DNA from: Dehalococcoidia bacterium
GTDB lineage: Bacteria; Chloroflexota; Dehalococcoidia; Bin125
NCBI GenBank assembly: GCA_963662615.2
Contig: CAXXSR010000002.1
Span: 96,001 to 160,000, forward strand
DNA: 64,000 nt
Direction of reading: 5' to 3'
Shown here: piece by piece, positions 2,174-28,528 of the stretch
Layout of the letters: the number at the start of each line of letters is the position of its first letter
Numbering within the stretch: the stretch's first letter is position 1
Notes under the pieces: model-generated
Told to the model about the DNA's origin: nothing
Databases searched by the model: none
What the model saw: only the letters and a program-made list of their open reading frames with translations
Translations under genes and position numbers: made by a program

Positions 2174-3103
2174 TCAGGCGCCGTCCCCGTGCACCTCCGG
2201 CAGGACCTCGTCGATCAGGCGCTGAGTCTGGGAGAGGACGTCGGCGTCGCCCTCGGCGATGGGACGGAGAACGAACTTGGAGATGCCGGCCGCCGTGTAC
2301 TCGTCGATGCGCGCGCGGATCTCCGCACGGCCGCCGACGGCCAGGTACTGCCGTGCCGGCAGGGGCGGACTGCGTTGTGCCAGGTCGGCGGCGGCGCGCT
2401 CAACGGCGGGCTCGTCCCAGCTGCCAAAGCGGAAGGCGAAACTCGCGCCGTAGTGGTCGGCGTCAATAGAGCGGCCGAGCGCTGCGCTCTCCCGCTTAAT
2501 CGCCTCCACGACGGCGTCCACCTGCGACGGTGGCAGGATCCCCGCTAACCAACCCGAGCCAATGGTGGCGGTACGGCGGATGGCGGCCCGGCTGCTGCCG
2601 CCGATCCAGAGCGGCAGCGGCTGCTGCACCGGCTTCGGATCGACGCTGGCGTCGCGATAGCGATAGTGACTTCCCTGAAAGGTGACGCGCGCCTCGCTCC
2701 AGAGACGGGTCATCAGGAGGAGCGCTTCGTCGGCTTGCGCGCCGCGTTGGCGGGCACTGCGGCCGGTGGCGCGCCACTCCGGGGCCGTGTCGGCGCCAAC
2801 GCCGAAGGCGGGGAGCAAACGCCCTTGGCTGAGAAAGTCGATGGTCGCGCACTGCTTCGCCAAGACCAGTGGGTCGCGGAACGGGACCACGGCCACGTTC
2901 ATGCCGAACTTGAGCCGCTGCGTGCGGCCCGCGAGGGCGGCCATCACGCTCAGCGTTTCCAGGAACGGGCGCGGCGAGACGAGCCGGTCGGTCTGCCAGA
3001 GCGAGTCGACATCGCCGTCTTCGCAGAGATCGACCCAGCGCCAGAAGGCGTCGGCAGCGGAAAAGGGGAAGGCGGCGAGGCCCAAACCGACACGAACGCT
3101 CAT
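2174..3103 (-). CDS. LLM-class (luciferase-like, possibly F420-dependent) oxidoreductase
   Basis: SLWQTDRL, RDPLVLAKQCATIDFLSQGR, PKPVQQPLPLWIGG motifs. Confidence 0.9.
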   Translation of the reverse strand: MSVRVGLGLAAFPFSAADAFWRWVDLCEDGDVDSLWQTDRLVSPRPFLETLSVMAALAGRTQRLKFGMNVAVVPFRDPLVLAKQCATIDFLSQGRLLPAFGVGADTAPEWRATGRSARQRGAQADEALLLMTRLWSEARVTFQGSHYRYRDASVDPKPVQQPLPLWIGGSSRAAIRRTATIGSGWLAGILPPSQVDAVVEAIKRESAALGRSIDADHYGASFAFRFGSWDEPAVERAAADLAQRSPPLPARQYLAVGGRAEIRARIDEYTAAGISKFVLRPIAEGDADVLSQTQRLIDEVLPEVHGDGA

Positions 3104-3195
3104 TGCCTGCCCTCGATTTCGCGGCAGTGAGGCCCGGCGGCCTCGCCGTCGCGGCCACGATAGCGGATGCGCCGCAGCGGGCCGGCCTGCGGGCC

Positions 3196-3370
3196 GCTCG
3201 CCGACCGCCGGAAGGCGCGGCAGCTTGACCGGGACCTGGCCGCTTCCTAGCCTCCTCCCGACCGCGCCCAGGAGCCTTGCGAGACCTCATGCGGGGAGAG
3301 CACCTGAATGCGATTCGTTATGCCCACATCCTTGGGGAGCCGATTGACCGCCCTTAGGGGCCGGCGCGCC
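3196..3370 (+). repeat. direct repeat copy 1 (promoter, leader and first codons of CSLREA gene)
   Basis: near-identical to 9348-9522 (offset 6152 bp). Confidence 0.9.
3225..3253 (+). promoter_or_regulatory. sigma70-type promoter of CSLREA gene 1
   Basis: TTGACC-N17-TAGCCT; identical copy at 9377-9405. Confidence 0.65.
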
Positions 3371-6241
3371 CGTCCACCCCTGGTGTTGGCCTCCGCCGCC
3401 GTGGTCGTGGCGGTGATTGCGGCCACGCTGGCACTGGTACTGACGCCCGGGACGGCCCACGGCGCCAACTTCACGGTCAATTGGCAGCCAGACGGGGTAG
3501 ACATCACCCCAGGCGACGGCATCTGCTCGGCCGGACTCCAAGGTTGCACGCTACGCGCGGCGGTCATGGAGGCGAACGCGCTCGACGGCGACGACACGAT
3601 CACGTTGCCTGCCGGCACCTACACGCTGACCATCGCGGGGACGGGCGAGAACGCCGCCGCCACCGGCGACCTCGACATCGCCGACCTCGCCAACAAGGTG
3701 ACCATCACCGGCGCTGGGGCCGCCAGCACGATCATCGACGGCGGCGGCATCGACCGCGTCTTTCAGGTCCTCGGTTTGAGCACGCTGGAACTCTCGGGCG
3801 TCACTGTCACCAACGGGAACGCCGGCGGCGGCGACGGGGGCGGCATCCGGGTCGGCGGCAGCCTGACGCTGACCAGCAGCAGGGTCAGCAACAGCACGGC
3901 CAGCGCCGGGGGCGGCATCTACGTTCAACCTTCCGGCGGCTTTCTCCAATTCGCCGGCTCGCTCACGCTGAATCTCAGCACCGTCGGCCCCAACAACAGC
4001 GCGACCTTCAGCGGCGGCGGCATCTGGAACGGCGGCTCCGCGACGCTCACAGACGGCGTCGTGGAAAACAACTTGGCGGGATTCGATGGGGGCGGCATCT
4101 TTAACAGTGGGACGCTGACCCTGATCCACACCACCCTCAGCGGGAACGCGACCAGTAGTGGAGACGGCGGCGGCATCCACAATGACGGCGGCGCCACGCT
4201 CACTCTGGACGACAGCGCCGTGGTGAGCAACACGGCGACGGCCGGTGACGGAGGCGGTATCAGCAACGTTGGGGCGCTGACGGTGAGCAACAGTAGCGTG
4301 AGTAACAACACCTCGACCAATGGCGTGGGCGGCGGCATCGACAACGCCGGGATGCTGACCCTCAGCAACACGACCGTTAGCGGCAACAGCACCACGGACC
4401 AGGGCGGCGGCATCTACAGCTCTGGCGCCAGCGCGGTGGTGGCGATGACAGGGGGCGCCGTTCAGGGCAACACGGCCGCGATCGCTGGCGGCGGTATCTG
4501 GAACGATGGCACCGTGACGCTGACCGGCAGTACAGTCAGCGGCAACACGACGAACGGACATGGCGGCGGCCTCCACAACGTAGGGGGCGCGAGCGCCACG
4601 CTGACGAACGCCACGGTCAGCAACAACACGGCGCCCGCCAGCGGTGGTGGCATCTACAACTCCGAGAGCGCTCTCAGCGTGGTGGACAGCACGTTCATCG
4701 GCAATCAAGCCGGGTTTTGCGGCGGCGCCATCCACAACATCGGCCCCACCGCGACGCTCGCCCTGACCCGCACGACGGTGAGCGGGAATACGGCAGGGGA
4801 TGATGGTGGCGGGGTTAGTAACGTCGTAGGCGCGATGGCGACGGTCACCGCCAGCACCATCAGTGGCAACACTGCTACCAGCACGGCAGGCGGCATTGAG
4901 AACGGGAGCGGCGCCTCGCTGACGCTGACGAACAGCACAATCAGCGGCAACACCACGACGGGGGCTGGGGGCGGCATCCTCAACGACAATAACGCCGCGT
5001 TGACGGTGCTCAACAGCACAATCAGCGGCAACATCGCCGGGGGCGTGGGGGGCGGCATCGCGCACAGCGGCGCCACGACCACGTTGAAGAACTCGATCGT
5101 GGCCGGGAACACCGCGGCCAACTGCGATGGCTCCATGCTCTCGTTCGACAACAACCTGGACAGCGACAACACGTGTAATTTGATCGCGCCGGGCGACCTC
5201 CCCGGCCTTGACCCGCTGCTGGGCCCGCTGGCGAGCAACGGCGGCCCCACCCAGACGCAGGCGTTGCTCGCGGGCAGCCCGGCGATCAACGCCGGCAACG
5301 ACGTGGGGGCGCCCCCAACCGATCAGCGCGGCTTCCCCCGGGTCGGCGTCAGCGACATCGGCGCGTTCGAGTTTCAAGGGCTCGACGCCGACGGCGACGG
5401 CTTCGACGACATCGCGGCGGGCGGGACCGACTGCGATGACGGCGACGCGACCATCTTCCCCGGCGCCACCGAGATCCCCTACGACGGCATCGACCAGGAC
5501 TGCGACGGCAGCGACCTGACCGACGTGGACAGAGACGGCTTCGAGGCCGACCAGGCCGTCGGCGGCACGCCCGACTGCGACGACACCGACGCGACCGTCT
5601 TCCCGGGCGCCACGGAGATCCTCGACGACGGCATTGACCAGGACTGCGACGGGGAGGACGCCATCAGTGAGCCGGAAGCGGTCCTGACGGCGACCTTCGC
5701 GCTGGTGGGCGGCTTCAACGCCATCGTCTTCCCCGGCGCGGATGACACGCCCATTGCGGACCTGGCCACCGCCATCGGCTCCATCACGGACGCCATCTTC
5801 CGCTTCGATGAGACGTCGCAGAGCTGGTTGGTGTATCGGCCCGACGTCGTGGTGCCGGGGTTGAATACGCTGGCCATGGCCAACCAGCGCGACGTCCTCT
5901 TTGTCCGTCTCGCCGCGGGCGGCGTGGCCACCTTGATGTGGGAGGACGTGCTGGCGGCCGGGCCGGTGAGCGTGGATCTGCCGCCGGGGTTCAGCTTCGT
6001 GGGCTTCACCGGCGCCGATGGGACGGCGGTGGCCGACCTGCTGGCGATGCTCCCGGCCGGGGTGGATGCGGCCTTCCTCTTCGCCGCGGAGGATCAGGAA
6101 TACGACGTCTTCCGGCGCGGCGAGCCGAGCTTCTTGAGCACGTTCACCTCCGCGGACCGGCTCGAGGCCCTGTTCATCCGCAACACGACGACCAGCACGG
6201 CGGTCCTCTCCTGGGAGCAGGTGGCCGCGGGCGGTCCCTGA
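3308..6241 (+). CDS. secreted CSLREA-domain / parallel beta-helix (GGGI-N repeat) / choice-of-anchor Q protein with MopE-like DCDD metal-binding repeats
   Basis: signal peptide ending [15 protein letters not shown], many GGGIxN repeats, [26 protein letters not shown], two [17 protein letters not shown] motifs. Confidence 0.9.
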
Positions 6242-21867: not shown

Positions 21868-22962
21868 TCAGATCGCCTCGGCGATGAGCGTGCCCAGGGT
21901 GGCGGTCTCGATCGCAGGCTCGCCTTCCGTGACGAGGTCGGCCGAGCGATGGCCCGCTTGCAGCACCTGTTCCACGGCGCGCTCGACGGCGGCTGCCTCA
22001 GGCTCCAGGCCGAGCGACAGGCGCAGCATCAGGGCGACGCTGAGGATCGCCGCGACGGGGTTGGCGACGCCCTTGCCGGCGATGTCGGGCGCGGTGCCAT
22101 GGATGGGTTCGTAGAGGCCCAGGTTCGTGCCCCCACCGCGACGGCGCCGTGCGCCCAGGCTGGCGCTGGGCAGCATGCCCATGGAGCCGACGAGCATGGA
22201 GGCTTCATCCGTGAGGATGTCGCCGAAGAGGTTCTCGGTGACGATGACGTCGAAGTCGGCGGGGCGGCGGATCAGCTGCATGGCGCAGGTGTCGACGAGG
22301 AGGTGCTCCAGCCGCACGTCGGCGAAGTCGCGGGCGACCTCCAGGGCGATCTCCCGCCAGAGGCGAGAGCTATCGAGGATGTTGGCCTTGTCGACGCTGG
22401 TGAGATGGCGTCGCCTGCCGCGGGCCAGCTCGAAGCCGAGGCGGAGGATGCGCTCGATCTCGCGCTCGCTGTATTTGAGGGTGTCGACGGCCTTGCGGCC
22501 GCGGCTGTCGCGCCAGCGCCGCTGGGGCTTGCCGAAGTAGATGCCGCCGGTGAGCTCGCGCAGGACGACCAGGTCCACACCCTCAACGATGTGGGCTTTG
22601 AGCGTGCTGCTGTCTGCCAGGAAGCCGAAGACTTTGACGGGGCGAATGTTGGCGAACAGGCCCAGCTCCTTGCGCAGGCCCAAGATGGCGTCCTCAGGCC
22701 GGGCCGTGGCTTGGGGGCCGTCCCACTTGGGGCCACCGACGGCGCCGAAGAGGACGGCGTCCTGACGGCGGCAGAGCTCGAGGTCCTCGGGTCGGAGGGC
22801 GACGCCATAGGCGTCGATGGCGCCGCCGCCGACGCGCGCCTCGGCGTAGTCGAAGGCGTGGCCGAAGCGTTGGGCGACGGCGTCCAGGACCTTGACGGCC
22901 TCGGCGATCACCTCGGGGCCGATGCCGTCGCCGGGGAGGAGGGCAATCTTGAAGGCGGCCAC
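21868..22962 (-). CDS. leuB: 3-isopropylmalate dehydrogenase
   Basis: [53 protein letters not shown]. Confidence 0.97.
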
Positions 22963-23063
22963 CGCTGGCTCCAGATCTCTGGGCTCAGTAGAGCGCGCCG
23001 GAGGCCTGGGGGGAAGGGATTCGGACGGGCTCAGTGTAGCACGCGGAGAGGGCAATTGGTTAC

Positions 23064-23092
23064 TTGACACACCTGACCGCATGTTCTAGCCT
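23064..23092 (+). promoter_or_regulatory. transposase promoter within IRL
   Basis: TTGACA-N17-TAGCCT, then AGGAG SD. Confidence 0.75.
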
Positions 23093-23114
23093 GCCTCCAG
23101 TTTAGGAGTCGGCC

Positions 23115-24104
23115 ATGAGCACCCCAGCGCCCAGCTACCTGGAAGTCCTGAAGTGGTCGGATGCCGAGTGCCGCGCCTACCTGGAGGCGCAACGCTGGCC
23201 CACCGGCCCCGCCTGCCCGAAGTGCGGGAACATCGGGGCGTGGACGATCACGCGCCGGTCCAAGACCAAGAACAAGGTGTCGCAGTTCTACTGCTGCAAG
23301 GCGTGCAAGCGGCAGTTCACTGCCACCGTGGGAACCATCTTCGAGGACAGCAAGATTCCGCTGTCCAAGTGGTTCGCGGCGATATACCTCATGTGTGAGT
23401 CCAAGAAGGGCGTGAGCGCCCACCAGCTCCACCGCCAGCTTGGGATTCAATACCGCTCGGCCTGGTACATGTGCCACCGCATCCGCGAGGCGATGCGGGA
23501 GAAGGGGCCGCGCCCGATACTGACCGGCGCGATTGAGGCGGACGAGACCTACGTTGGAGGCAAGGTGCGCGGCGCGCCGATGGCCCGCTCACGTCGCAAG
23601 GCGCGCAAGGGCCAAGCGTACGCCCTCGGGGACAAGGTCATCGTGTTCGGTCTGCTCCAGCGCGGCGGCGAAGCGCGCACGATAGTGATCCCCAACGTCA
23701 AGCACGCAACCGCGCGGGGGCGACTCGCCCGCCACATCGACTTCAGCAAGGCGAAGCTCTATACGGACGGCCACCCGGCCTATCGCGGGATACGGCACTT
23801 CCTGCCGCACGCTTACGTGGACCATGAGCGGGAGTACGTGAAGCGCGATGCCCCCGAAGTTCACACGCAGGGGATCGATGGCTATTGGAGCATCCTCAAG
23901 CGCGGGCTAACCGGCGTGTTTCACCACGTCGGGCCGGCCTACCTGCCCCAATACCTGCATGAGTTCGAGTACCGCTTCAATCGTCGTCAGATAACGGACG
24001 CGGAGCGGTTTCAGGCGCTGCTTGGGCAGGTGACTGGTCGGCTGGAGTGGTATCGGGAGCGTCCGGCGCTGGGGGGCGCTTCGGAGCCCGAATCAGCTTC
24101 TTGA
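23115..24104 (+). CDS. IS1595-family (ISXO2-like) transposase
   Basis: RWP..CPKCG..CKACKRQF zinc ribbon, SKKGVSAHQLHRQL HTH, EADETYVGG, YTDG, HTQGIDGYWSILKR, YLHEFEYRFN. Confidence 0.95.
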   Translation: MSTPAPSYLEVLKWSDAECRAYLEAQRWPTGPACPKCGNIGAWTITRRSKTKNKVSQFYCCKACKRQFTATVGTIFEDSKIPLSKWFAAIYLMCESKKGVSAHQLHRQLGIQYRSAWYMCHRIREAMREKGPRPILTGAIEADETYVGGKVRGAPMARSRRKARKGQAYALGDKVIVFGLLQRGGEARTIVIPNVKHATARGRLARHIDFSKAKLYTDGHPAYRGIRHFLPHAYVDHEREYVKRDAPEVHTQGIDGYWSILKRGLTGVFHHVGPAYLPQYLHEFEYRFNRRQITDAERFQALLGQVTGRLEWYRERPALGGASEPESAS

Positions 24105-24171
24105 TCGCGTCCGCGAAGTTCAGCGGGTGGAGCGAGACGCGGGTGTCCTGATGCTTCCCGTCGTGTGCCAT
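23977..24171 (-). CDS. small ORF convergent with and overlapping the transposase 3' end
   Basis: MAHDGKHQDTRVSLHPLNFADAIKKLIRAP; upstream minus-strand promoter at 24374-24402. Confidence 0.5.
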   Translation of the reverse strand: MAHDGKHQDTRVSLHPLNFADAIKKLIRAPKRPPAPDAPDTTPADQSPAQAAPETAPRPLSDDD

Positions 24172-24315
24172 AGCGCCTGATCAGTTCCTGCTCTCCAACG
24201 GACATGCCACGATATGACCGCGGTCACTACCGCGCAACCACTATATGTTGGGGTCCATCTTCATAAGGGGGTTATCTCCCTAGTAGAAAGCCCTAAACTG
24301 GCCCTTAACCAGAAC

Positions 24316-24528
24316 CGCCCGCTTGTGGCGGGCGACCGGCGGACTCACACGGCTGGGGACCACGACAATCCCTAGCTTACGCAGCCCGTCGATCCCCGTC
24401 AAGCGCGAGCTTTTGGCTATGTCTCGCCATTTTCCGGCGCAAGCCGGCTGGTCGTCTCCTACATGGTGGGAGGCGAAAACTGACCCGGAAGGTCGCCGCT
24501 CAGTGAGTGGGGCAAGCGACCTTCCGGG
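24316..24528 (+). ncRNA. candidate structured RNA inside the IS
   Basis: six consecutive hairpins, G-U pairs and a GCAA tetraloop that fold on the + strand. Confidence 0.5.
24374..24402 (-). promoter_or_regulatory. antisense sigma70-type promoter inside the IS
   Basis: TTGACG-N17-TAAGCT on the minus strand. Confidence 0.6.
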
Positions 24529-24661
24529 CCCCTGGAGGTGATATATGGCGCGATACCCCGTCGCGTCGATAGAACGGTAGGCCCCTCAGGGGCCAACGCT
24601 ACTACTGAACCTTGGCAAGGCCCAGGGCTCTGGATTGTACATAACTCAGCAAAGGAATGCT

Positions 24662-24970
24662 ATGCCTATCAACAGCGATCGCTACGCCTTCACCCCGGAA
24701 AACATCGAGCTGGCCCCGAACGACGCTGGCGTTTATCAGTTGGAAGACGCTGGCGGCATTACCTATATCGGGCGTGCGGCGGGACGGACTGTCACGATCC
24801 ATAGTCGTCTACGGGACCACCAGAGCGGGCGAGAAGGACCGTGCACTCAGGTAGCGACGCATTACCGCCGTGATGTGACCAATCAGGCCGCTGACCGAGA
24901 GGAGAAGCTGCTAGAGGAGCACTTACGGCAACACCGGCGGTTGCCCCGCTGCAACGATGTGATGCCGTAG
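24662..24970 (+). CDS. minimal GIY-YIG nuclease-like protein (102 aa), IS passenger
   Basis: APNDAGVYQL..ITYIGRA..SRLRDH..EEKLL..LPRCN matches the GIY-YIG/R/H/E/N layout; AAGGA SD. Confidence 0.75.
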   Translation: MPINSDRYAFTPENIELAPNDAGVYQLEDAGGITYIGRAAGRTVTIHSRLRDHQSGREGPCTQVATHYRRDVTNQAADREEKLLEEHLRQHRRLPRCNDVMP

Positions 24971-24976
24971 CTGGAC

Positions 24977-25207
24977 TCACTTGATCCAGGTTGCGCGACA
25001 GAGGCCGGTGAGGGCAGTACCTGAGCCGGCCTCTTCGCCATCTCGATCGAAAACAAACTCGCGATTGCCGAGGGACAGGTCGCCGTACACGCGCAGACGG
25101 CTCGTCCCGTCCTCAACAGTCTCGAACTGGAAGCTGAGGCCCGACACCGGGTCCTCGATCATCTGCTCCTTGACCGTCCACGGGCGGCCACCGGGCTTTA
25201 TCGGCAT
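24977..25207 (-). CDS. hypothetical protein (76 aa), IS passenger
   Basis: GAGGTG SD, beta-rich sequence, convergent with the GIY-YIG gene. Confidence 0.65.
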   Translation of the reverse strand: MPIKPGGRPWTVKEQMIEDPVSGLSFQFETVEDGTSRLRVYGDLSLGNREFVFDRDGEEAGSGTALTGLCRATWIK

Positions 25208-25500
25208 GACCCACCTCGCCCGTCCACACCCGCCGCGCCACTCAAACGTGAGCGGCTCCTATGGTCAAGACCACCACCACCGCGTTGACATCGCGTCTCA
25301 TCCATAGTACGTCCGTTCAGGTGTGTCTAATGCTCAATTACCCGGAGAGCGATATTACAACCGCTTTTGGCGTATCACCAGATGGCGGGTGGCTGAAACG
25401 GGGGGCTGGGGCCAGCAGATGGACAGGGTGAGGACAGGGGAGGGACACGGAGAGGCAGGCAGGGGACAGGGATCGGGCGGGGTCGGGACGGGGAGGGGAC

Positions 25501-25620
25501 AGGTCACTGCGTGCCGGGTCACTGCGTGACGGCCCGGTGGGGGATGGGTCACTGCGTGCCGGGTCACTGCGTGACAGCCCGCTGGGGGACGGGTCACTGC
25601 GTGACGGCCCGCTGGGGAAC
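25501..25620. repeat. 8 x 15-bp mosaic tandem array (GGGTCACTGCGTGMC and RGCCCGSTGGGGRAY units)
   Basis: read directly; order A'-A-B-A'-A-B-A-B. Confidence 0.9.
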
Positions 25621-25699
25621 GGCGATGGCTCCCTTACTCGTCTGTTCCGCTGCGGTCCGAGTTTAGCCATCCCTCCGAGATGGCTCGTTCGCGGGTGAC

Positions 25700-25864
25700 T
25701 CAACAGCCCGGATCGCCGTAGCGGCCGCAGCAGTTCTGGCGCCTGCGGGGGCGGTACGACCAGTTGACGAGCATGCGTTTGAGGTCAGCCGGGGAGCGGA
25801 CGCGGCGCATGTTCGTGACGGCGTCGCGGAGGGAGGGGCGCAGGCTGGGAGCGTCGTCGCACAT
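25700..25864 (-). CDS. small Cys-tailed protein (54 aa, ends CCGRYGDPGC)
   Basis: own translation MCDDAPSLRPSLRDAVTNMRRVRSPADLKRMLVNWSYRPRRRQNCCGRYGDPGC; below the ORF-track cutoff. Confidence 0.65.
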   Translation of the reverse strand: MCDDAPSLRPSLRDAVTNMRRVRSPADLKRMLVNWSYRPRRRQNCCGRYGDPGC

Positions 25865-26028
25865 GGGGTTGTTATTTCTCGGTTCGCCCTGCGACTTTTT
25901 CGCCCGCGCTCGCGACTCGTCTGGTCCCGCCCGGCGTGCGTGTCCGCTCGCGCCGGGGCTTGATGATCGGGGCGATGTCGGCGCCGTTCGCCCCTTCGAC
26001 AGGCTCCTTCTGCTACGCGAAGGACAGG

Positions 26029-26638: not shown

Positions 26639-26893
26639 CTAGCCGCTTGCAGCGATACCGGATTCATCGACGCGGAGGGACCAGGTGAAGGCGCGCCGCG
26701 GCTCCGGCTCCTCCCCCAGCTCCCGGCGCGTCGCCAGCCAAGCAGCGATCGCCTCGTGAAGGTGCGTGCGCAGCTCGTCCAACGTCTCAGCCTGCGCGAC
26801 GCAGCCGGGCAGGTCAGTTACCTCGGCCCAGTAGCCACCCTCCTCCGCCTCGTACACGGCGACGGTGTAGGCGGTGTCATCGTTCGTCGTCAT
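26639..26893 (-). CDS. HicB-family antitoxin
   Basis: EEGGYWAEVTDLPGCVAQAETLDEL..EAI. Confidence 0.85.
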   Translation of the reverse strand: MTTNDDTAYTVAVYEAEEGGYWAEVTDLPGCVAQAETLDELRTHLHEAIAAWLATRRELGEEPEPRRAFTWSLRVDESGIAASG

Positions 26894-27105
26894 CGTGCGT
26901 CCGCAAACTGCTCTGGTGTCACACCGGCGCGCCGAATGAGACGGTGAAGCAAACTGATCTTCAGCGTACCAGTCGGGATAGCGAGGAGCGCCCCGTTAGG
27001 CATCGTCACCATTCGGTAGTTCTTCCTCGTTCGCCGTTCCACGCCGCCCAACCCCACGAAGGCCGTGACCGCCTGCTCCTGGCGAACGTTGCGCAGTTGC
27101 GGCAT
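26890..27105 (-). CDS. HicA-like protein lacking the catalytic His
   Basis: 71 aa HicA layout (LKISLLHRLIRRAGVTPEQF) coupled to hicB; the GSH motif is replaced by RKNY. Confidence 0.65.
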   Translation of the reverse strand: MPQLRNVRQEQAVTAFVGLGGVERRTRKNYRMVTMPNGALLAIPTGTLKISLLHRLIRRAGVTPEQFADAR

Positions 27106-27121
27106 CGATAGTTCGAGGGCG

Positions 27122-28528
27122 CTAGCCCCACTCGCGGACGTCAACGAAGTGGCCGGCGATGGCGGCGGCGGCGGCCATGGGCGGGCTGACGAGGTGGGTG
27201 CGGCCGCCCTTGCCCTGACGGCCCTCAAAGTTGCGGTTGGAGGTGGAGGCGCAGCGCTCGCCCGGCTGGAGGATGTCCGGGTTCATGCCCAAGCACATGG
27301 AGCAGCCGGCCTCACGCCAGTCGAAGCCGGCGTCGCGGAAGATGTCGGCGAGGCCTTCGGCCTCGGCCTGCTGCTTCACCAAGCCGGAGCCCGGCACGAC
27401 CATGGCGCGGACGGTGGGGGCGACGCGCTTTCCCGCCACGACGGCGGCGGCGGCGCGCAGGTCCTCCACGCGGGCGTTGGTGCAGGAGCCGATGAAGACG
27501 CGGTCCAGGGGGATATCGGCAATGGGCGTTCCGGTACGAAGGTCCTGGTACTTGAGGGCGCGGTGAGCGGTCTCGCGGGTGGCGCGGTCCGGCATCGCCT
27601 CCGGGTCCGGCACGGCCCCGGTGACGGGGACACTTTGGGCCGGGTTCGTCCCCCAGGTGACAAAGGGCACGATCTCGTCGCCACCGATGACGACTTCCTT
27701 GTCGAAGGTGGCGCCGTCGTCCGTGGGGAGCTGTCGCCAAGCAGCGAGGGCGGCGTCCCATTGCCCGTCCTGGGGGGCGAAGGGGCGGCCGCGAACGTAG
27801 TCGAAGGTGGTCTCGTCGGGCGCGACGAGGCCGGCGCGGGCGCCGCCCTCAATGGTCATGTTGCAGACGGTCATGCGCCCTTCCATGGAGAGGCTGCGGA
27901 TCACGTCGCCGTGGTATTCGATGACGTGGCCGGTGCCGCCGCTGACCCCGATGCGGTTGATGATGGTGAGGATGACGTCTTTGGCGGTGCAGCCGTCGGG
28001 CAGGGCGCCGGTGACCTCCACGGACATTTGCTTGACCGGCCGTTGCGCAAGCGTCTGGGTGGCGAGGACGTGCTCCACCTCCGTCGTGCCGATGCCGAAG
28101 GCGAGCGCGCCGAAGGCGCCGTGGGTGGAGGTGTGGCTGTCGCCACAGACGATGGTGAGGCCGGGCTGCGTCAGCCCCTGCTCGGGACCAATGATGTGGA
28201 CGATGCCCTGGCGCAGGTCACGGACGTCAATGAGGGGGACGCCGAAGTCGTGGCAGTTGGAACGGAGCGCTTCCACCTGTTGCTGCGCGAGGGGGTCGGC
28301 GAACGGCTCGGTGCGATTGTCGGTGGGGACGTCATGGTCGGGCACGGCAATGGTGAGATCGGGGCGGCGGACGCGGCGCCCGTTGAGCCGGAGCCCCTCG
28401 AAGGCTTGGGCGGAGGTGACCTCATGGATCAGGTGCAGGTCCACGTAGAGCAAGTCGGGGGCGCCTTGCTCGCGCCGGGCCAAGTGGCTCTCCCAGATCT
28501 TCTGGGCCAGGGTGCGCGCTTGCGGCAT
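27122..28528 (-). CDS. leuC: 3-isopropylmalate dehydratase large subunit
   Basis: [46 protein letters not shown]. Confidence 0.98.

Follow-up and report, generated by a model that had tools for sequence, protein, structure and literature searches.

The 64,000-nucleotide stretch analyzed here (the window; positions 96,001 to 160,000 of contig CAXXSR010000002.1, Dehalococcoidia bacterium assembly GCA_963662615.2) contains a complete insertion sequence (IS) of the IS1595 family, which carries genes for a small stand-alone GIY-YIG nuclease and for a convergently encoded partner protein of 76 amino acids (aa). Relatives of these two genes recur side by side in metagenome-assembled genomes (MAGs) labeled with several phyla and in viral contigs, and their divergences are correlated. 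We propose, with a probability of about 0.45, that the two genes form a nuclease and inhibitor-type addiction or defense cassette carried by the IS. The element spans positions 23051-25342 (2.29 kb), and about 1.2 kb of it is non-transposase DNA; its features are collected in Table 1.

Table 1. Features of the IS1595-family element in the window, from left to right.
Feature	Position	Strand	Basis
Left target-site duplication, CGGAGAG	23044-23050		Sequence reading and direct-repeat analysis
IR-L, left terminal inverted repeat (IR)	23051-23088	+	Inverted-repeat analysis
IS1595-family DDE transposase with N-terminal zinc ribbon, 329 aa, intact	23115-24104	+	Pfam, NCBIfam
Small basic open reading frame (ORF), 64 aa, motif SLHPLxFxDAIKxL	23977-24171	-	Motif comparison with IS1595 relatives
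Non-coding hairpin-rich block, from the small ORF to the nuclease gene	24172-24661	+	Folding against shuffles
Four serial hairpins, common to L028 (3781-3949) and L138 (2780-2952)	24446-24611	+	Covariance model R1
11-codon mini-ORF behind GGAGG	24545-24580	+	Sequence reading
Stand-alone GIY-YIG nuclease, 102 aa, Pfam DUF7508	24662-24970	+	Pfam, profile, AlphaFold2 model
Partner protein, 76 aa, five predicted beta strands, unnamed family	24977-25207	-	Homologs, profile, AlphaFold2 model
IR-R, right terminal inverted repeat	25305-25342	-	Inverted-repeat analysis
Right target-site duplication, CGGAGAG	25343-25349		Sequence reading and direct-repeat analysis

The nuclease and its partner occur as a compact cassette

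Loci sampled from the nuclease side place the partner gene convergent with and directly behind the nuclease gene in 17 of 27 cases (L002, L003 and L027-L051, a set that includes two duplicate pairs and in which L049 and L050 are cut or fragmentary), and a convergent partner is also present in 6 of 8 further nuclease-sampled loci from genomes. The scan of genome contigs for the nuclease used a 13-sequence alignment. Loci L004-L026 match only 19-87 columns of the nuclease alignment, mostly the N-terminal 20-40 residues, at expectation values (E) of 1e-4 to 1e-3, and were treated as unrelated GIY-YIG proteins and excluded from every subsequent count. The picture is similar when loci are sampled through the partner: of 43 genome loci, 33 have a GIY-YIG relative no more than 3 kb away and 10 have none, while six viral-contig loci comprise two with the pair, one with the partner and a truncated nuclease gene, and three with the partner alone.

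The cassette is tightly organized. The two stop codons in the window are 6 nucleotides (nt) apart, and across loci the gap between the ends of the two hidden Markov model matches is mostly 12-18 nt. Three closely related loci (L031, L032 and L033) have just ~650-730 nt in common, at 75-79% identity, from ~100 nt upstream of the nuclease gene to ~60 nt past the partner start, a stretch that defines a minimal cassette of ~0.7 kb. Moreover, in a set of 39 non-redundant pairs chosen as convergent, nuclease and partner diverge in a correlated way (Mantel r 0.71, a value reached in none of 2000 permutations). At the level of sequence, this correlation shows that the pair is inherited as a unit, not that the two proteins bind one another.

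An earlier, sequence-only reading of this DNA had named the 76-aa ORF as a possible partner of the GIY-YIG gene and had joined a non-coding hairpin block to the same module. The co-occurrence and correlated divergence described above are in agreement with the first of these proposals; a covariance model of the block, by comparison, has no match in 59 other loci, and the block does not in general accompany homologous GIY-YIG genes as the ORF does.

The nuclease belongs to DUF7508 and looks active

The window nuclease scores 27.6 bits against PF24348 (DUF7508), past the gathering cut-off of 26, and 18.6 bits against PF01541, under the cut-off of 22.6; similarly, 20 of the 27 aligned nuclease relatives match DUF7508 at E ≤ 0.01. 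The profile built from the 27 relatives matches the N-terminal GIY-YIG domain of UvrC (1yd6, E 6.9e-5), and more weakly BH0048 (1zg2, E 0.017). The AlphaFold2 model of the nuclease has a predicted local distance difference test score (pLDDT) of 93.6, and its best fold match is 1yd3, with template modeling (TM) scores of 0.61/0.68.

Residues G23, Y25, Y35, G37, R49, H53, C61, T62, E80, R96, C97 and N98 are retained across the core nuclease family, with Y25, Y35, G37, R49, E80 and N98 invariant or nearly so, and the protein ends in a conserved C-terminal tail, LPRCNDVxP. The residues that we take to be Tyr19, Tyr29, Arg39, Glu76 and Asn88 in UvrC numbering all have equivalents in the window nuclease. 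Since the catalytic residues are all kept, the active site is complete, and judged by its sequence the nuclease looks active. The assignment of the 102-aa protein as a GIY-YIG nuclease, already made in the sequence-only reading, is borne out by both the catalytic residues and the UvrC-N-like fold.

Although the N-terminal GIY-YIG domain of UvrC (PDB 1ycz, 1yd0-1yd6) is the best match in both sequence profile and fold, the window nuclease is a stand-alone protein of 102 aa with no other UvrC domains, is mobile and paired with the 76-aa partner, and has an invariant C-terminal LPRCND tail as well as conserved Cys61 and Cys97. All 102 aa make up the catalytic domain, and there is no DNA-binding extension; a search for longer, fused relatives came up empty, although this is weak evidence in itself. 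In the passages concerned, Dunin-Horkawicz et al. (2006; PMC1564403) describe a C-terminal Asn as kept in the UvrC/homing-endonuclease branch of GIY-YIG enzymes and lacking from UPF0213/YhbQ, the Slx1-like stand-alone GIY-YIG proteins with a minimal domain, unlike the window family with its N98.

In addition to these matches, we compared the nuclease with further collections. NCBIfam offers no family for it beyond weak UvrC matches, and tblastn of plasmid and phage record collections found no match for either the nuclease or the 76-aa protein. Across 401 genomes of the phylum, the nuclease profile has matches in 6, and besides that of the window just one is below 1e-10.

DUF7508, whose gathering score the window nuclease passes, is a family without a described function, and a full-text literature search returned no mention of it; what is added here to the description of the family is its partner gene and its link to IS1595. 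Among the matches listed for IS1595, passenger and GIY-YIG, no title or abstract describes the layout found here, and no such pair appears among those listed for GIY-YIG with toxin-antitoxin; the relevant passages of PMC13621843 concern an unrelated inactive protein. The earlier statement that no described system has this layout stands within these searches.

The partner is a conserved small protein

The 76-aa protein has 6 close homologs, and its profile matches, at E ≤ 1e-3, the representatives of 355 clusters formed at 50% identity (227 of them at ≤ 1e-10), which indicates that the ORF is a real, conserved gene. The AlphaFold2 model (pLDDT 77.6) consists of five beta strands. No Pfam or NCBIfam family and no solved relative was found for the partner by sequence, and the fold searches returned a best E of 0.21 in Foldseek and a best Z of 5.2 in VIA-align, under the level that is meaningful for that tool. 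The best ESM Atlas score, 0.76, likewise gave no lead.

Proposed restraint of the nuclease by its partner

In the arrangement that we favor, the GIY-YIG nuclease would be potentially harmful to DNA and the 76-aa protein would restrain it, as an inhibitor or immunity-type protein. Each gene would be under its own promoter and, with their 3' ends nearly abutting, the two transcripts could interfere with each other. The pair would then be an addiction or defense module that stabilizes whichever mobile element carries it. The window element is composed of a backbone (IRs, zinc-ribbon DDE transposase and small basic ORF) and a cargo, the autonomous convergent two-gene cassette.

The fate of the nuclease gene in degraded copies is consistent with this proposal, as the nuclease gene may be cut down or absent while the partner stays. 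L051 and L194 each hold a truncated nuclease gene beside a matching partner ORF, and, as given above, 10 of the 43 genome loci and three of the six viral ones keep the partner without a GIY-YIG relative. Additionally, the genes that neighbor the pair are often toxin-antitoxin, defense or mobile-element genes. Known pairs of a nuclease and its inhibitor, such as colicin DNase with the Im protein and barnase with barstar, as well as type II toxin-antitoxin pairs, resemble the cassette in consisting of two small genes, one of them for a nuclease, that lie on mobile elements beside other toxin-antitoxin genes, and in that the putative protector occurs in orphan copies and the nuclease in decayed ones. 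Unlike them, the present genes are convergent with nearly abutting stops, and the partner has no sequence or fold likeness to solved inhibitors.

Several observations weigh against an addiction or defense module. Neither protein has a match at E ≤ 1 in PADLOC-DB 2.0, nor does either match PHROGs. The partner family is mildly acidic (median isoelectric point, pI, of 5.5) and has no DNA-mimic signature; a comparison of charge and pI between nuclease and partner is not decisive. The co-directional operon of classical type II toxin-antitoxin systems is not what is found, the genes being convergent in the window and in the 39 pairs, themselves selected as convergent. The partner is absent from eight distinct, mostly more divergent nuclease loci (L002; L003, on the same contig as L143; L035/L038; L039; L040; L044; L048; and L144), in which we found no conserved neighbor, cross-similar ORF or weak profile match that could be an alternative partner.

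The copies in Burkholderiales MAGs (L156-L186) are a further point of this kind. These genomes have 2-4 DUF7508 paralogs around a single partner gene (e.g., L157 1885-3941 and L171 2110-3884), some of the paralogs are catalytically degenerate (F25, A49, Q53, H/L80, W97), and a 214-aa protein joins a SpoIIAA-like domain to DUF7508, its gene adjoining that of a hybrid histidine kinase (GAF, HisKA, HATPase, REC). Such arrays fit signaling or housekeeping better than a 1:1 toxin-immunity pair. They are, together with a fold that is nearest to the UvrC repair nuclease domain, the evidence for a cellular, non-selfish role in DNA repair or processing or in signaling, with the presence in IS1595 elements being a matter of hitch-hiking. 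We consider such a role rather unlikely, as the distribution in the phylum is sporadic (the 6 of 401 genomes given above), the module turns up in MAGs labeled with several phyla and in viral contigs, and it has been captured within IS1595 IRs in two orientations.

If a nuclease and a restraining protein is the correct description, the cassette would be an undescribed small two-gene addiction or defense module, present in MAGs of several phylum labels and in viral contigs, that one IS1595 lineage has picked up repeatedly. DUF7508, a domain of unknown function, gains a partner through which function can be tested, and the partner itself defines a new family of small proteins, with at least 355 clusters at 50% identity. 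The window element would moreover be a clean case of an insertion sequence that stabilizes itself with cargo, to which related copies add a TumE or Panacea gene, and the stand-alone 102-aa nuclease could have practical interest as a minimal GIY-YIG enzyme.

Capture of the cassette by IS1595 elements

The transposase of the window element matches PF12762 (5.7e-34), PF12760 (2.5e-11; 43.8 bits, cut-off 25.4) and NF033547 (2.3e-63; 213.9 bits, cut-off 75). Carriers of passenger genes in the IS1595 family are the transporter IS in the definition of the ISfinder authors, and the window element is like them in its zinc-ribbon DDE transposase, IRs starting with GG, short target duplication and extra genes between the IRs. 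It is unlike them in that the passenger is a specific nuclease-partner pair and that the small backbone ORF has the opposite orientation to that seen in ordinary relatives.

The pair is enclosed in four IR-bounded IS1595 elements (the window, L028, L138 and L139), in two orientations; in the window the GIY-YIG and 76-aa genes lie between the transposase gene and IR-R, and they are likewise enclosed in the other three. The transposase of L028 is 58% identical to that of the window, and this element is flanked by a perfect 8-bp target-site duplication, ACTGAAGT. L138, from a Dehalococcoidia MAG, also has a perfect 8-bp duplication (AATGAATT) and keeps the window gene order with the addition of a TumE toxin gene and an 88-aa ORF (1721-2409). 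In L139, from an Alphaproteobacteria MAG with IRs at 1438-1461 and 4408-4431, the pair is oppositely oriented, and a gene with a SocA/Panacea antitoxin domain is present at 2765-3337. A transposase adjoins the pair without IRs being found in L045/L046, L051 and L153, and IS1-type transposases flank it in L032 (a weak match) and L152.

The target of L028 (2394-2408 / 4611-4625) is palindromic, reading GGACGGA, the 8-bp duplication and TCCGTCC, which suggests that a hairpin or a terminator-like sequence was the site of insertion.

None of 80 IS1595 relatives with 35-44% identity carries either gene of the pair within 2.5 kb. Together with the 6 of 401 genomes of the phylum that match the nuclease, this means that the link is confined to one IS lineage and holds from the side of the cassette. 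The comparison of loci indicates that the cassette has a mobility of its own and was captured more than once. A role as an accessory of transposition, in which the IS1595 transposase would rely on the nuclease to cut the second strand or the vacated donor site, has in its favor that transposase and pair are found together in 7 distinct loci (among 85 rows scanned, duplicates included), four of them within one IR pair. We regard this role as very improbable, given the 80 relatives that lack both genes, the predominance of pair copies without a transposase in the DNA examined, and the varying orientation of the pair relative to the transposase.

The 64-aa ORF, which is convergent with the transposase gene and overlaps its 3' end, had been counted as cargo in the sequence-only reading, and here that reading needs to be revised. 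Its family (motif SLHPLSFDEAI) is present in 41 of the 80 IS1595 relatives, on the transposase strand and either downstream of the transposase or fused to it; the ORF is a backbone component of this IS1595 subgroup rather than cargo. It is inverted relative to the transposase in the window, in L028 (3336-3551) and in L138 (1536-1724), and no Pfam, NCBIfam, PADLOC or PHROGs family matches it. Where it occurs among the IS1595 relatives L058-L137 (e.g., L106 3444-3611), the small protein or C-terminal tail has the motif PKAKPVSLHPLSFDEAIKALI, followed by a lysine-rich end.

Genomic neighbors and a possible homing-type role

The genes near the pair, or near the nuclease gene where it occurs without a partner, include Panacea genes in L002, L045 (SocA/Panacea, 3105-3644) and L139; TumE in L138; Gp49/HTH in L141; PIN in L157; AbiU2 and IS6 in L187; NERD in L038; IrrE-HTH in L048 and L144; and integrases in L002 and L149. 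L003 has a 550-aa phage-like ORF, without a Pfam match, that we read as a terminase. A scan for tRNA genes found none in the window element, and tRNA genes adjoin the module in L051 and L036 only.

The gap between the genes for the ribonucleotide reductase subunits is a classic site of free-standing homing endonucleases in T-even phages. In L044 (3992-4294), a DUF7508 gene without a partner lies exactly between the genes for the large and small subunits of this enzyme, a position that we take to be typical of free-standing homing endonuclease genes. The module of L036 sits between purM and purH, and the window element itself lies between leuB and leuD. These locations bear on another explanation, that the pair is a two-subunit selfish homing-type endonuclease in which the 76-aa protein supplies DNA binding or assembly and the cassette spreads by cutting empty sites; spread of this kind would explain the location both between housekeeping genes and inside IS copies. 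The absence of a DNA-binding module from the 102-aa GIY-YIG protein itself also fits, as do the relevant passages of Dunin-Horkawicz et al. (2006; PMC1564403), which record bacterial representatives of the homing-endonuclease cluster within transposons and prophages. Free-standing GIY-YIG homing endonucleases of the I-TevI and Seg type likewise share with the window nuclease the core of the UvrC/homing lineage with its C-terminal Asn, but the window nuclease has no DNA-binding extension, and the catalytic domain of I-TevI is a weak fold match (Foldseek E 2.9).

A homing-type endonuclease is in our judgment unlikely, if somewhat less so than a cellular role. The DUF7508 gene of L044 is itself without a partner, and orphan partners and truncated nuclease genes would be unexpected if the partner were a mere subunit. 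Sequence and fold searches detected no NUMOD-type or other DNA-binding domain in either protein. In addition, the same site is occupied in other public runs, and no empty-site joint is among the contig matches displayed.

The hairpin-rich block upstream of the nuclease

The block between the small ORF and the nuclease gene folds better on the + strand than 100 of 100 shuffles (z -3.62; the - strand gives z -1.91), in line with the dense hairpins noted in the sequence-only reading. Its densest part is the segment of four serial hairpins (z -4.47, with none of 200 shuffles as good). Syntenic blocks are present in L028 (555 nt, z -4.03) and L138 (588 nt); the latter, with z -1.18 and 20 of 200 shuffles as good, is not unusually stable. 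The two loci are 74% identical to each other from 216 nt upstream of the nuclease gene onward. A structure model from L028 and L138 (R1) matches the window segment over its full length (11.1 bits, E 0.0038), where a sequence-only model (R2) reaches 4.3 bits (E 0.18); a chance match of R1 in the GIY-YIG coding region of L138 scores equally, at 11.6 bits. The RNAalifold covariation term is -8.5 with two sequences and +0.46 with three, and the MAFFT alignment misplaces the hairpins and gives no support.

R1 has no match in 59 other loci, among them loci with the GIY-YIG gene, the partner or both, and the block has no blastn or tblastx similarity to L002-L051, which makes a conserved hidden protein in it unlikely. 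Rfam gave no match at E ≤ 1 on either strand of positions 22500-26000. A promoter scan found no sigma-70-like site and two terminator-like sites, no more than in shuffles. In many cassettes, a single GC-rich hairpin precedes the nuclease start by 35-90 nt. Across strains, 8 of 21 listed differences fall within the 490 nt of the block, the highest density save that of the partner gene. In one IS sublineage, the block probably serves the nuclease gene as promoter and 5' leader, and it may be regulatory. On the loci compared, it appears limited to three related IS1595 copies, and the module does not require it as a third component.

The putative 11-codon ORF of the sequence-only reading is present in the window, and a Shine-Dalgarno-like GGAGG with a start codon occurs at the same place in L028 and L138; the length and sequence of the peptide are not conserved between the three.

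These results bear on the control of the nuclease by RNA, which the sequence-only reading had put forward as a possibility for the cargo. An RNA-controlled or RNA-associated nuclease with the structured block as an integral third component would agree with the sense-strand stability of the block (z -3.62, and -4.47 in its densest part), with an L028 block of near-equal length and z -4.03 and with the better score of the structure model than of the sequence-only model. It is undercut by the 59 loci in which R1 has no match and by its equal-scoring chance match in coding sequence, by the covariation term of +0.46, the ordinary stability of the L138 block and the lack of an Rfam family, and by the concentration of strain differences in the block. 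GIY-YIG homologs without the RNA block are found, and L031-L033 have only ~100 nt in common upstream of the nuclease gene, both of which weaken the proposal further; we now consider it improbable. Restricted to the IS1595-borne copies, the nuclease, the 76-aa protein and the upstream RNA could jointly be a transposon-maintenance or RNA-associated nuclease that cuts element-free sites so that the IS is restored or retained, a scheme that follows the logic of TnpB and its omega RNA. Neither an RNA-linked GIY-YIG system nor an accessory of this kind in the IS1595 family would then have a precedent, and we give this scheme no better prospects than the transposition accessory discussed above. The convergent pair as an autonomous nuclease and inhibitor-type cassette, with the block as the probable leader of one sublineage, remains the description that we prefer.

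Boundaries and insertion site of the window element

The CGGAGAG direct repeat abuts both ends of the element and thereby fixes its span. The IR arms are 39 nt long, imperfect and 74% complementary (paired stretches 23050-23088 / 25305-25343), and IR-L resembles the IRs of L028 and L138 (GGGAATTAT..ACTTGACACAC). The target duplication is either 7 bp and perfect or 8 bp with one mismatch; 8 bp is the usual length for IS1595. The IRs, 7-bp duplication, span and ~1.2 kb of passenger DNA recorded in the sequence-only reading are thus all present.

The element is single-copy in the 2.66-Mb genome and is inserted between leuB (Iso_dh, 1e-131) and leuD (Aconitase_C), in a cluster of leuA, leuB, leuD and leuC. 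A search around leuB in 7 loci of same-family genomes turned up none of its three proteins, and the same insertion site is occupied in contigs of public runs from other studies, with 13-15 differences over ~2.2 kb; the insertion is therefore lineage-specific and stable among strains. The contigs come from four public runs, and no RNA run was among the listed holders of the element. In one run (X4), a 2807-nt contig matches the window only to position 23021 and then continues with unlike sequence, and another contig begins at 23059; this loss of the match close to the left IS end may reflect an assembly break or a variant context.

Tandem repeats lie just beyond the right end of the element (25421-25623), with periods of 15/45 (a unit with GGGTCACTGCGTG) and 11, and a 15-nt insertion or deletion at 25545-25546 varies among the public runs. 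Further along the cluster, between leuD and leuC, there is a HicB-like antitoxin gene (PF15919 1.9e-7, UPF0150 2.4e-10) adjoined by a 112-aa ORF without a Pfam match that may be its toxin; the two genes occupy 26639-26893 (-) and 26890-27228 (-), and with them a second intergenic gap of the leu cluster holds a selfish-type module.

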